Source: an uncultured Nitrososphaerales archaeon (GTDB lineage Archaea > Thermoproteota > Nitrososphaeria > Nitrososphaerales > Nitrososphaeraceae). Taken from it: 64,000 nucleotides of DNA. The position numbers and the translations under genes are program-made. Each line of letters begins with the position of its first letter. The stretch's first letter is position 1. Shown in pieces: positions 53,061 to 64,000 of the stretch. Below the pieces are notes generated by a model. The model did no database searches and was not told the origin of the DNA. It saw only the letters and a program-made list of their open reading frames with translations. The stretch covers positions 256,001 to 320,000 of the forward strand of contig CAVQMO010000001.1 of NCBI GenBank assembly GCA_963713605.1. Reading direction: 5' to 3'.

Positions 53061-53279
53061 AGGTGGCTGAGAATCTCAATTTTGAAGACGTCCATTCGAA
53101 TCGGTACCTGAGAATCAATTTGTTCCATAATGTCTCCGGTGTTGGGCATGTTCGGTTATGGATTCTTTTCTGGAGGTTGTATGTTCATCTCATGCTACCG
53201 AAAGTCATTCGAAAATGATGTGATGTCATAGTTGCGCGACCTAAAAGGATTAATACACCGATTATGCCTTAAATTACTG

Positions 53280-53525
53280 ATGCCAACAGCTTATGTGCTT
53301 ATCAATTGCGACCTCGGTTCAGAGGAGGAAATTCTAAAGGAGCTGAGGAGATTAAATGAGGTTGTTGAATTAAGCGGAGTATACGGCGTTTATGATATTA
53401 TAGTGAAGATAAGGGCCGATTCTATGGATAAACTGAGAGAAACGATAACTTGGCATGTTAGGAGAATCGATAAGGTCAGATCAACTCTTACAATGATAGT
53501 AATTGAAGGGCAAGGAAATAAGTAA
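53280..53525 (+). CDS. stand-alone Lrp/AsnC ligand-binding (RAM) domain protein
   Basis: AYVLINC..GVYGVYDIIVKI..IDKVRSTLT. Confidence 0.92.
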   Translation: MPTAYVLINCDLGSEEEILKELRRLNEVVELSGVYGVYDIIVKIRADSMDKLRETITWHVRRIDKVRSTLTMIVIEGQGNK

Positions 53526-57606: not shown

Positions 57607-57852
57607 ATGCCAATAGCATATGTGTTACTCAATTGTGAACTCGGTCATGAAGCAGATATTATTAACGAACTGAAAAAACTACCGGGAGTCAATGATGTCG
57701 AAGGATGTTATGGTGTTTACGACATGATTCTGAAAATAAGCTCGGATTCGATGGACAAGCTAAAGGAGACTATCACGTGGCACATCCGAAAGATAGACAA
57801 AATAAAGTCGACTTTAACATTGATAGTTATAGAAGGCCAGGGGAATCATTAG
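57607..57852 (+). CDS. stand-alone Lrp/AsnC ligand-binding (RAM) domain protein
   Basis: paralogue of 53280-53525. Confidence 0.92.
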   Translation: MPIAYVLLNCELGHEADIINELKKLPGVNDVEGCYGVYDMILKISSDSMDKLKETITWHIRKIDKIKSTLTLIVIEGQGNH

Positions 57853-61215: not shown

Positions 61216-61437
61216 ATGTATGTTATTTAGATCAACTAGAGTCGATTATTAATGTAACTGTCTAGCTGTGCAACAGATATACAGTACATTGACTTCTGTC
61301 ATACCTAAGAGTAGGATAGTCTCAAATCTTAAAATCAAGCCATTACTTGTCTTACGAATAGATTTCCTCAGGTGGAATAATTGCATGGCATCCCCAAATA
61401 AAATAACATTAATGGGGAATTGTTTGGATAAAAAGAG

Positions 61438-62256
61438 GTGAATAGTTCTTCGGACCCTGGAGAATATTGGCAGAATAGACTCACAGCAAATTATAGTTTG
61501 GACGGAACAGGATTCCAGGCCCTTGGCCAGCATTACAACAAATGGATGTATAGAATTAGGAAAGTTATCGTAAAAAGGGTGGTTAATAGGACGATCTCTG
61601 AGCTTAATGTTAAGGATGCGTTTGATATTGGTTCAGGTACTGGGTTTTACATTGACATGTGGATAGAACTTGGCGCTACAGGAGTCATAGGAAGTGACAT
61701 TACAGACGTGGCAGTGTCGAAGTTGGGGGAGAAATATCCTTCCAATGAATTCTTTAAGCTTGATATTGGGCAAAATGTATTGCCAGATCAGCTCTCTGGC
61801 CGAAAGTTTGACATCATATCTGCATTTGATGTATTATTCCATATAACCGATGATGTTCGATATCGGAATGCAATACTGAATATTAGTCGCCTTTTAAGAG
61901 AAGATGGAACGTTTTTGTTTTCAGAGAATTTTCTTCATCGTGATGCGCTAAGATCCCAGCATCAGGTGAGCCGTCCGCTTCTTTCAATCGAAAGGATACT
62001 TCAGGAAAGCGGATTTAAAATATTAGACAGGATTCCCATGTTTGTAATTATGAACGCACCAGTGGATACTAACAGTAGGTTACTTCAAACAACCTGGAAG
62101 TTGATTAGAACCACTGCAAAGAAAGGGAGATTCGCATCGAATTTCACCGGCTGTTTGCTTTATCCTCTAGAATTAATTCTTACTGGTATAGTCAAGGAGG
62201 GGCCATCAACGGAATTGATGATCTGCAAAAAACTACAAGGGGGTTCACAGTCCTAG
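61438..62256 (+). CDS. class I SAM-dependent methyltransferase
   Basis: FDIGSGTG, GSDI, FDIISAFDVLFHI. Confidence 0.9.
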   Translation: MNSSSDPGEYWQNRLTANYSLDGTGFQALGQHYNKWMYRIRKVIVKRVVNRTISELNVKDAFDIGSGTGFYIDMWIELGATGVIGSDITDVAVSKLGEKYPSNEFFKLDIGQNVLPDQLSGRKFDIISAFDVLFHITDDVRYRNAILNISRLLREDGTFLFSENFLHRDALRSQHQVSRPLLSIERILQESGFKILDRIPMFVIMNAPVDTNSRLLQTTWKLIRTTAKKGRFASNFTGCLLYPLELILTGIVKEGPSTELMICKKLQGGSQS

Positions 62257-62353
62257 TAAAGGATAGCAACATGCCGGAGTTAGATGTTGTTGATTCTCCA
62301 TTTAGCATTCTAACGTTTGAGCTATATGGCTAGTCAAACGACCTCTCATAGAT

Positions 62354-62803
62354 TCATCGACTTTGGTTGACACCCTTCCGATACCAAATGAAAAGCAGTA
62401 TTGCTCCAATTGCTATTCCAAATAGAGAATACACATAGGAGTTAGTGACGATAAAACAGTGCCACTCAAGCACTCTTAGGGAAGGATCCGTTAATTGAGC
62501 GTCCTCCTGACTAAGAATAGATAGACATCTAAAACCCTCCGAATTCAGGTCCGCTGCCAGGATAGAAAAGAGTGCTATAAAGAATATGCCATAATAGAAG
62601 AGGTTGTTTGCCCATAGGGGACTCATTGGAAACAATAAACCAGAGCTGAATCTTTCAAGAGGTGAAAGCTTGAGGCGTTCAGTGTTTGAAAGAAATGCTT
62701 GTAACAACAGCTCCTTAACAAATAAGAAGCACTTAACGAAATTGTATTCAATCAGTCCTACCTTCCCACATCTCTTTTCGCGTAGTCCCAATCGGTCATA
62801 CAA
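62354..62803 (-). CDS. membrane protein (start probably later than the ORF start)
   Basis: two TM helices flanking a loop with two Cys. Confidence 0.55.
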   Translation of the reverse strand: MYDRLGLREKRCGKVGLIEYNFVKCFLFVKELLLQAFLSNTERLKLSPLERFSSGLLFPMSPLWANNLFYYGIFFIALFSILAADLNSEGFRCLSILSQEDAQLTDPSLRVLEWHCFIVTNSYVYSLFGIAIGAILLFIWYRKGVNQSR

Positions 62804-62845
62804 TATCTCACTATAGAATCTTACAGTACATTAGACGTAAAAATA

Positions 62846-62853
62846 TTTATAAT
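62846..62853 (+). promoter_or_regulatory. archaeal TATA box with purine-rich BRE-like sequence upstream
   Basis: gtaaaaata-TTTATAAT, ending 21 bp before the GTG at 62875; spacing fits a leaderless transcript. Confidence 0.55.
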
Positions 62854-62874
62854 GTATTGCTCCGCGAAAGTACC

Positions 62875-64000
62875 GTGCTTAGTAAAACAAATTCATTTCA
62901 AACGTACGTACTAATAGCACTAACACTGGGAGCATTAGGGCTCCAAGTAGTGCCTTTAAACCAAATACATGCAACAGTGGCTGGATTGGCAGCCGCAGCC
63001 GCAGCTGCGAGCAGCTGGTGACGCAGCAGCTGCCGCAGCAGCAGCCGCTGGAGGCTCAGCTGCAGCTGCAGCCGCTGCAGGCAGTGGCAGCTGCAGCAGC
63101 AGCATCATCTGCAGGAGGAGGTGCAGCAGCAGCCGCAGCAGCAGGCAGTGGCAGCAGCAGCAGCAGCCGCCACCTCTGGTGGTTCAGCAGCAGCAGCAGC
63201 CGCAGCAGGCAGTGCAGCCGCAGCAGCAGCCGCTGGAGGTTCAGCAGCAGCAGCAGCCGCAGCAGGCGGTGCAGCCGCAGCAGCAGCCGCTTCTGGAGGA
63301 GAAGCCGCCTCGGCAGCAGCCGCGAGCAGCAGCGGCTGATAACGGCGCAGCAGCAGCCGCAGCGCAGCTGCGGGTGCAGGCGCTGCATCGGGCGCAGCAG
63401 CAGGCGCAGCCGGCAGCAGCAGCCGCTGCAGCGGCAGCAGCTTCAGGTGTCTCAGGAGCAGCAGCAGCAGCCGCAGGCAGTGCAGCAGCAGCAGCCGCAG
63501 CAACTGGAGGTGGTGCAGCAGCAGCTGCGGCAGCAGGAAACGCAGCGCGCAGCAGCAGCAGCAGCCGCAGGTGGCGGTGGTGCAGCAGCAGGTGCAGCAG
63601 CCGGTGGTGGTGGCAGCAGCAGCAGCCGCAGCAGCCAGTCAGGCAGCAGCCGCAGCCGCAGCCGCAGCTGGCGGTTCAGCCGCAGCAGCAGCCGCAGCAG
63701 GAGCAGCAGCAGCCGCAGCCGCAGCCGGTGGTGGTGCAGCAGCCGCAGCCGCAGCTGGTGGTGGTGCAGCAGCAGCAGCAGCCGCAGCTGGTGGTGGTGG
63801 CAGCAGCCGGCAGCAGCCGGTGGCGGTGGTGCAGCAGCCGCAGCAGCCAGTCAGGGCAGCAGCAGCAGCCGCAGCTGCAGCTGGCGGTTCAGCAGCCGCA
63901 GCAGCCGCAGCAGCCGGTGGTGGTGCAGCGGGCGCGGCAGCCGCGGCAGCAGGTGCAGCAGCAGCAGCTGCAGCAGCAAGCTCAGGGCTTAGTGGGGCAG
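62875..64000 (+). CDS. secreted poly-Ala/Gly repeat protein (partial; multiple apparent indels)
   Basis: GTG 62875 gives MLSKTNSFQTYVLIALTLGALGLQVVPLNQIHA-TVAGLAAAAAAA; GCN codon runs separated by GGN/TCN codons continue to the window end. Confidence 0.8.
62989..64000. repeat. imperfect GC-rich tandem repeat, (GCN)~7 + 2-4 Gly/Ser codons, unit about 27-33 bp
   Basis: recurrent gcagcagcagcagccgcagca separated by ggtggt/ggaggttca/ggcagt. Confidence 0.93.

Follow-up and report, generated by a model that had tools for sequence, protein, structure and literature searches.

Polyalanine β-crystallites are familiar from animal silks. The known prokaryotic functional amyloids—curli and archaeal sheaths—use, to our knowledge, Asn/Gln ladders or folded cores. 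In spidroins, Ala blocks of 7–10 residues form β-crystallites and account for about one quarter of a 250–350 kDa chain, embedded within long Gly-rich amorphous blocks (PMC9999432). Lacewing egg-stalk silks (MalXB1/2, ChryC1-3) are described as cross-β material built from 16-residue Ser/Gly/Ala repeats (PMC5485732), and the curlin repeat as two 7-residue strands and two arcs, one of which is 4 residues long and contains Gly, together 23 ± 5 amino acids long (PMC10192328). The sheaths of Methanothrix and Methanospirillum consist of SH/MspA paralogues that combine one amyloid-like core with varied caps, Ig-like ones included, and whose co-assembly into continuous cross-β has been proposed; neither ‘Nitroso’ nor ‘alanine’ occurs in the main text of that report (PMC11576556). 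For ammonia-oxidizing archaea, a study of biofilms points to multicopper oxidases and to adhesion proteins of large size, portrays biofilm solutions as largely lineage-specific and contains ‘amyloid’ only within a reference title (PMC12448741).

Against this background, we analyzed a gene at the end of a 64,000-nucleotide stretch of DNA from an uncultured Nitrososphaerales archaeon (the window; G000:C1:256001-320000). Coordinates above 64000 continue the window numbering along the contig, and subtracting 60000 from a number gives the position in the locus record L001. An earlier note on this DNA had placed the start of a secreted, silk-like protein at a GTG codon at 62875, behind a TATA box. 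The signals at this site bear that out: on the plus strand, a BRE-like A-rich block and TATA box (62834..62852; TTTATAA at 62846-62852) lie 29 nt 5′ of the start codon, and such a block recurs 28-30 nt 5′ of the start in seven orthologous loci. Its spacing suggests a leaderless or near-leaderless transcript. The GTG opens a 33-residue, Sec-type signal-like peptide (62875..62973, plus strand) with one Lys, a hydrophobic stretch and a terminal QIHA; it is kept in orthologues, in line with the initial reading, and would be cleaved after QIHA, whose counterparts in paralogues are QIFA, QVFA and QAFA. Segments of this kind—n-, h- and c-regions with a small residue at -1—were found at 14 of 16 Ala-block loci in the same genome, 11 by a hydropathy cut-off and three by eye, a pattern that an uncleaved anchor might also produce.

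The Ala-block domain follows, occupying 62989..64000 (plus strand) within the window. The entire tandem array extends from 62989 to 64941 and comprises ~650 residues in ~60 blocks, mostly of 6-9 Ala, set apart by 2-residue turns (GS, GG, GD, GQ and GN in the window) and 3-5-residue Gly/Ser loops; the acidic turns GEDP and ENGGS appear close to the 3′ end of the domain (~64941). The four successive Ala7 blocks with GGS/GS/GGS/GG/SGGE turns that had first drawn attention are present at ~63175-63300. Beyond the window edge, and likewise on the plus strand, lie a Pro/Glu/Gly linker (~64945-65450), two two-cysteine modules of 14-15 residues each (65452-65571) and eight acidic 6-residue repeats with an Asp/Asn/Gly tail, ending at a TAG stop codon (65767-65769); a terminator-like inverted repeat with a T-run was read by eye at 65777-65800. 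Following the contig past 64000 thus reached the C-terminus: as delineated by a frame-tracking script, the gene runs on the plus strand from GTG 62875 to this TAG, with ~1770 nt beyond the window end, and its product measures ~940 residues, the C-terminal third being non-repetitive. No membrane anchor was seen in the C-terminal part. The two-cysteine modules were modeled as small β-hairpins in the G008 orthologue (AlphaFold2, pLDDT 82-89), and ~12 copies of the module occur in a paralogue at C10:668-669 kb.

In this assembly, the frame from GTG 62875 stops at codon 49 (TGA 63019), and the tracked Ala frame shows ~10 single-base breaks within the window and ~19 over the whole gene. With the C-terminal part as query, matches were obtained in 10 of 41 genomes including G000 (E ≤ 0.001), eight of them other members of the genus. 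Both flanks of the locus are syntenic in G001, G003 and G013, and the downstream flank in G009 and G010. An unbroken frame leads from the signal peptide across the blocks in orthologues from G009 (768 codons, ending with the contig), G005 (772), G010 (598) and G011 (576). An independent metagenome contig (L236), whose nucleotide identity is 88.5% (1840 matches, 239 mismatches), likewise has no stop in ~726 codons. The only complete orthologue, 890 aa long and with ATG where the window has GTG, comes from the unpublished genome G013, on which the claims of complete length and of the ATG rest, as do five of the 15 pN/pS pairs given below; G013 is also among the proteins in the run-length, turn-alternation and embedded-residue counts.

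Because the same-locus orthologues are open, we read the frame breaks as, most likely, long-read sequencing errors. Ordinary reading frames of G000 shift too (5 frame changes in 3 of 19 frames, or 0.4 per kb), so indel errors are present in this assembly and enriched in repeats. It is the density of the breaks in the window gene, 19 in 2.9 kb against 0.4 per kb, that speaks for a different explanation, namely that the gene is truly broken in this strain, or phase-variable through slippage of the GCA repeat, with no full protein made there and the family nonetheless real. We judge this barely probable. Like breaks affect four of the four other large paralogues in G000, and the remaining two long-contig assemblies carry 6 and 35 indels at the locus, whereas fragmented assemblies are open. 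Aligned to the G009 protein, the G000 DNA has 623 of 675 codons identical (92%) with 17 single-base indels, and shows no in-frame decay relative to the intact orthologue. Short-read RNA contigs near-identical to the gene, albeit with loose ends, moreover pass in frame across the first break, from the signal peptide into Ser and 8-9 Ala codons.

Sequence comparison places the selection on the protein. Within the block region, six orthologues share 84-98% of residues while differing at 29-48% of synonymous sites, and for every one of the 15 pairs pN/pS lies between 0.06 and 0.22 (0.11-0.22 for the 10 that exclude G013), values in which ambiguity of the repeat register may inflate the synonymous counts. 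Changes between G009 and G010 number 34/28/219 at codon positions 1/2/3 of the Ala frame, and turn words visibly keep their irregular order among orthologues. Ala codons on the frame-tracked path are mixed (GCA 333, GCC 92, GCT 76, GCG 18), as had been remarked at the outset. By these measures the Ala frame of the locus codes for a protein and evolves under purifying selection, which upholds the initial view that the protein, rather than slippage, had shaped the repeat. Poly-Gln and poly-Ser readings were rejected as other frames of the GCA repeat, the substitutions falling at Ala-frame third positions; a microsatellite or assembly chimera was rejected in view of synteny, purifying selection and the open independent metagenome contig. 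Given this selection and orthologues whose frame is uninterrupted across signal peptide and Ala blocks, the two outcomes that the earlier note had considered fatal—no continuous reading frame, or a chimeric assembly—therefore fail at the level of the family; what does not hold for this assembly is an uninterrupted gene from 62875.

Inspecting the repeats revealed a consistent grammar. Unbroken Ala runs of three or more in G000 are 7 residues long in 17 of 49 cases and 6-8 long in 34 of 49. Across 13 intact family proteins, 168 of 687 pure runs have length 7 and 128 length 8, as compared to 42 and 28 after shuffling; the sequences being related, these counts, like those of turns and embedded residues below, overstate independence. 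Rather than being fixed at seven residues, as previously proposed, block lengths peak at 7-8, far from chance, and spread from 6 to 10. Autocorrelation in the intact family proteins peaks at lags 10-11 and 21 and is negative at lag 16 (-0.17). Most two-residue turns take the form G-X (GS 57, GG 49, GD 17, GQ 12, GN 11, GK 9), and wide turns are 3-5-residue loops, with runs of 3-4 Gly at every second block. Alternation of tight and wide turns, labeled by rules set after the sequences had been seen, exceeded the mean of the shuffles in all 14 proteins and was matched by at most 5% of 2000 shuffles in eight of them, not in the other six. Since tight turns alternate with 3-5-residue loops, the repeat unit is two blocks (~21 residues). 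Single residues embedded in Ala runs (n = 147) comprise 66 S, 60 G, 10 T, 9 V, 1 D and 1 N, and none of E, K, Q, L, M, R or P; E would be expected at ~11% of single-base changes from Ala-run codons. That only small or β-branched residues are admitted, without E, points to burial on all sides. Overall, the core contains 60-72% Ala and 12-18% Gly, spacers mostly measure 2-4 residues, Thr occurs 41 times in spacers in addition to its embedded positions, and Gly clusters recur every 10-11 residues.

By defining features, this protein is neither a spidroin nor a curlin. Like major ampullate spidroins, it has a long repetitive core with consecutive-Ala blocks, here peaking at 7-8, which could form β-crystallites, and blocks within the 7-10 range of spidroins and fibroins are found. 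Unlike in spidroins, Ala dominates the composition instead of Gly, spacers measure only 2-5 residues, the chain has an estimated ~75 kDa, and Pfam searches at E up to 10 returned nothing for the long members or the block region of the window gene, spidroin terminal domains included. As spidroins are Gly-dominated, with Ala making up about a quarter of the chain, and possess folded terminal domains, the comparison is a loose one. Lacewing silk, as described, is alike in that its secreted chains are made of small residues (Ala, Gly, Ser) and carry Cys and Asp toward the C-terminus; a two-strand period of fixed length and spinneret-free self-assembly are further parallels, with strands and assembly putative here. 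Its repeats differ in being Ser/Gly-rich with a period of 16, for which the autocorrelation gave no sign, as opposed to near-pure Ala with periods of ~21 (archaea) or 25-26 (Rubrobacteria, see below); homology is not expected, and cross-β, established for the silk, is something we infer for the Ala-block protein.

The likeness to CsgA and curlin, as these are described, comprises a signal peptide followed by repeats of, putatively, two strands, a wide range of repeat numbers and small versions with a short polar head. Periods of ~21 and 25-26 with alternating turns compare with 23 ± 5 in curlin, strands and arcs being putative here. Unlike curlin, the Ala-block protein has no N-x-psi-x-psi-x-Q motif or Gln ladder, and would present Ala on both faces instead of one buried and one variable face. 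PF07012 (curlin) had no match in G000, the E. coli control being positive, nor in seven family proteins, and CsgG (PF03783) none in G000, which is 87% complete; an archaeon of this type would need no outer-membrane channel. With archaeal sheaths, compared by description alone, the family shares export, multiple archaeal paralogues and one core with varied caps including Ig-like domains, whereas the SH core is a folded two-sheet, twelve-strand domain (PMC11576556). By analogy, the mode of working may be closest to lacewing cross-β silk and curli, and the organization appears to resemble that of the sheaths.

The product is probably a structural protein that is exported and that represents the largest type in a family with multiple paralogues. 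The structure that we favor, at slightly better than even, is one of short β-strands in arches or hairpins with Ala on both faces, stacked as an insoluble cross-β fiber or coat. Turn alternation and the small or β-branched residues inside blocks suggest, indirectly, short strands with tight turns. The protein would first be exported through Sec, and each Ala block would then adopt a short β-strand of 2.5 nm. Turn propensities of G-S, G-D and G-N favor tight turns, and a tight G-X turn alternating with a wider Gly/Ser loop would make two blocks into one β-arch or hairpin. By simple arithmetic, ~60 stacked strands would form a ribbon/meander or two-sheet solenoid ~15-30 nm long. As both strand faces carry only methyl-sized side chains, such ribbons would be expected to pack on each other in the manner of polyalanine silk crystallites, giving rise to an extracellular cross-β fiber, film or coat that is insoluble. 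The acidic, Pro-rich tail with its disulfide hairpins would remain outside the stack, where it could keep the precursor soluble and provide a hydrated or cation-binding surface or outer brush. Smaller paralogues that join the same blocks to different N- or C-terminal parts (an Ig-like domain, His/Lys/Tyr heads or Asp/Cys tails) might co-assemble and decorate the material as cargo-carrying co-monomers.

The main evidence against the cross-β reading comes from AlphaFold2, which rendered the Ala blocks helical in both jobs, at low confidence (pTM 0.41 with a 9-row alignment, 0.30 from a single sequence). pLDDT reached 71-83 over residues 51-120 of the C-terminal model and fell below 50 at 65 of 155 residues of the N-terminal one. 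With only 9 and 1 sequences as input, and with helices running straight across the Gly turns, these models were weighed lightly. They would fit an α-helical surface protein made of capped two-turn helices or of long, kinked, tightly packed helices joined from neighboring blocks (an alanine coil). Such a protein could serve as a stalk or coat, or bind ice or a surface through a helix, as type I antifreeze proteins do in fish. The 10-11-residue spacing equals three helical turns, G followed by S, D or N is a helix C-cap, and D-P before a run is an N-cap motif; because the same turn words that suit tight turns also fit helix caps, we retain this reading as an unlikely one. The pTM values, the runs of 3-4 Gly at every second block and the absence of Glu, Lys, Gln, Leu and Met from all 147 embedded positions, residues that an exposed helix should accept there, argue against it, and a Foldseek search of the PDB with the helical model gave no structural match at E ≤ 0.001. 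A type I antifreeze protein, furthermore, is an uninterrupted helix with Thr every 11 residues, whereas here Thr is rare and without that spacing, and it is Gly clusters that recur every 10-11 residues.

Low complexity, the poorly scored residues of the N-terminal model and a Pro-rich linker modeled as disordered would agree with a disordered or condensate-forming extracellular polymer, such as a mucin- or elastin-like gel or spacer, in which selection maintains composition and Ala runs too short to aggregate, and Gly breaks could prevent aggregation. Selection on composition alone, however, predicts neither position-specific turn words whose order is kept at 29-48% synonymous divergence nor the recurrence of same-turn blocks in Actinomycetota and Bacillota, and we consider such a polymer fairly improbable. 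The sequence evidence for strands would serve equally well for a folded monomeric β-roll, a soluble rod with the same strands and turns that binds hydrophobic surfaces, air-water interfaces or ice without polymerizing. The conserved order of N- and C-terminal blocks could act as caps, and there is a precedent in a beetle antifreeze protein, an Ala/Ser-cored two-sided solenoid. Yet all-Ala outer faces should self-stick, and the smallest paralogues have 3-6 blocks, too few for stability alone, which makes the β-roll a long shot.

Block clusters in G000 numbered 19, corresponding to 16 loci once three splits had been merged: five of them large, two fused to Ig-like domains and nine small (2-6 blocks, with a charged head or tail). 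Three small secreted Ala-block genes with Asp/His/Cys tails (G000:C15:36.9-37.9 kb, C4:15.8-16.9 kb and C4:29.9-31.0 kb; L209-L211) each lie directly 5′ of a conserved secreted 228-aa gene with a weakly Ig-like C-terminal half. Across 121 family genomes, matches to this partner (E ≤ 1e-13) were confined to genera g1 (11/14) and g3 (6/7), and a small Ala-block gene stands 5′ of it in six of the 10 partner loci with enough upstream DNA (the script gave seven, one of which, a lone AAAA, was excluded). Fusions of a signal peptide, an Ig-like domain and Ala/Ser blocks were seen at G000:C15:31.0-31.9 kb, C10:176.1-177.1 kb and in G011:C318 (L024); their Ig-like domain is MG2-like at E 2e-7, just under the cut-off, and the two G000 copies are nearly identical.

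Searching Nitrososphaerota genomes, as the earlier note had advised, found the block pattern in 13 of 14 genomes of the genus. Among 201 family genomes, it matched 12 of 13 in g1 besides G000, 5 of 7 in g3 (small forms at the loci examined), 2 of 4 in g30 and 1 of 37 in g29, and none in g2 (34), g5 (38) or g12 (25). L198, L205 and L206 (the latter two from g30) are divergent Nitrososphaeraceae members whose blocks are rich in Val, Thr and Ser, with AVAVA and ASASA patterns, and which should be useful for structure prediction. A stricter pattern matched four of 201 genomes of the order, two of them from another family; of these two, the one examined was an antisense Ala/Pro tail. A scan of genomes from all species returned at least 122 loci. 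Among the matches listed, 14 had ten or more runs: nine from Nitrososphaerales-type archaea (including TH5896 and TH526, in likely overlap with the genus set), three from Rubrobacteraceae (two genes) and two that are apparently off-frame. In both the all-genome and the viral scan, the majority of pattern matches resemble Ala runs that are off-frame, antisense or due to chance.

In the class Rubrobacteria, 4 of 104 genomes match, with genes at L193:865-2835 (G225), L194 (G219), L195 (G220) and L191 (G241). Their proteins repeat every 25-26 residues, with up to ~40 Ala8-10 blocks, and a short segment of amphipathic appearance lies at the C-terminus or close to it. Turn alternation is nearly strict in G219 and G225 and looser in G220, and a signal peptide with a Pro-rich linker is present in two of three (G219, G225). 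BLASTP between one Rubrobacteria and one archaeal member gave no alignment, probably owing to low-complexity handling. A Streptomyces gene (L196:4334-4738, G221; 1/301 genomes) encodes a small secreted protein with a Lys-rich stretch and three Ala blocks at the end. Bacillota proteins (L197:3447-3785, L310, L312, L313; 4/401 genomes) of 112-138 aa carry, without a signal peptide, a Gly/Phe/Pro-rich head and about five same-turn Ala blocks; a spore-surface role would be a guess. One of 73 viral loci, L307:1488-1868, combines a charged head with seven Ala blocks.

A wider, tentative proposal, which to us seems somewhat more doubtful than probable, is that of a prokaryotic polyalanine silk: a minimal all-alanine β-arch or hairpin module common to archaea and bacteria, building a crystalline cross-β coat or fiber from up to 16 co-assembling paralogues per genome. 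It would encompass soil ammonia-oxidizing archaea, Rubrobacteria, a Streptomyces, some Bacillota and one viral-contig copy, with Ig-like, His-rich, Asp/Cys-rich and disulfide-hairpin cargo as well as the dedicated Ig-like partner gene. Homology searches would have missed the module because of its low complexity.

Such searches were indeed negative. A 226-aa block region had no phmmer match among 1.84 billion representatives, and region 600-890 of the G013 protein none among 8000 scored candidates. The Cys modules had no match to PDB sequences and one marginal match among 588 longer-protein candidates. Pfam and NCBIfam returned no significant match for the Ala-block regions, nor Pfam any for the C-terminal part, and the ESM Atlas no usable one for one archaeal and one bacterial member. 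Titles and abstract openings in the published literature, covering few subscription journals and no supplements, mentioned no such Nitrososphaeraceae or Rubrobacter family, which could sit in supplementary tables as hypothetical proteins; nor did the sources searched yield an experimental structure, a proteome or a culture for it. From sequence, this appears to be an undescribed family of secreted Ala-block proteins, β-stacking structural proteins as such being already known. If true, an exported, near-pure Ala-block family under purifying selection in soil nitrifiers would add a third design to those of the known functional amyloids and would bear on attachment, aggregation or desiccation resistance in uncultured Nitrososphaeraceae. 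Members of 60-120 residues are cheap to synthesize, which renders the structure directly testable and may be of use for protein materials. The family also exposes a blind spot, as genes of this kind are shredded in long-contig assemblies, split over contigs in fragmented ones and without a match via HMMER, Pfam, NCBIfam and the ESM Atlas.

As to transcription, whose absence would have counted against the original proposal, 20 of the 24 sequencing runs listed contain part of the region. Four were compared over the non-repetitive 5′ stretch 61300-62988, divided into 30 bins. All 30 bins were covered by the DNA run; in the three RNA libraries, each from a different study, coverage was confined to 62886-62986 (3, 2 and 2 of 30 bins, with 0-1 mismatch). 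Runs outside these four that contain a small share of the region (X14, X16, X19, X20) do not enter the evidence. These RNA contigs, retrieved with the Ala-block gene itself as query and representing its 5′ end only, give a weak hint that the gene is transcribed; the missing RNA cover upstream of it is likewise a weak hint.

No genes for an anchor, a nucleator or dedicated secretion flank the window gene. The gene 5′ of it encodes a class I SAM methyltransferase (window 61438-62256) that is whole in G013; only its 3′ part was matched in G001 and G003, where it is probably decaying and unrelated to the Ala-block gene. Elsewhere in the genome, a long frameshifted array at G000:C5:159.3-161.5 kb is made up of two-cysteine repeats of 21 residues, after which come Pro/Glu/Thr repeats; it is unrelated to the Ala blocks. 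Further upstream in the window, two small proteins resembling each other are encoded 4 kb apart (53232-53525 and 57607-57852), which we take to be Lrp/AsnC-like C-terminal-domain proteins.
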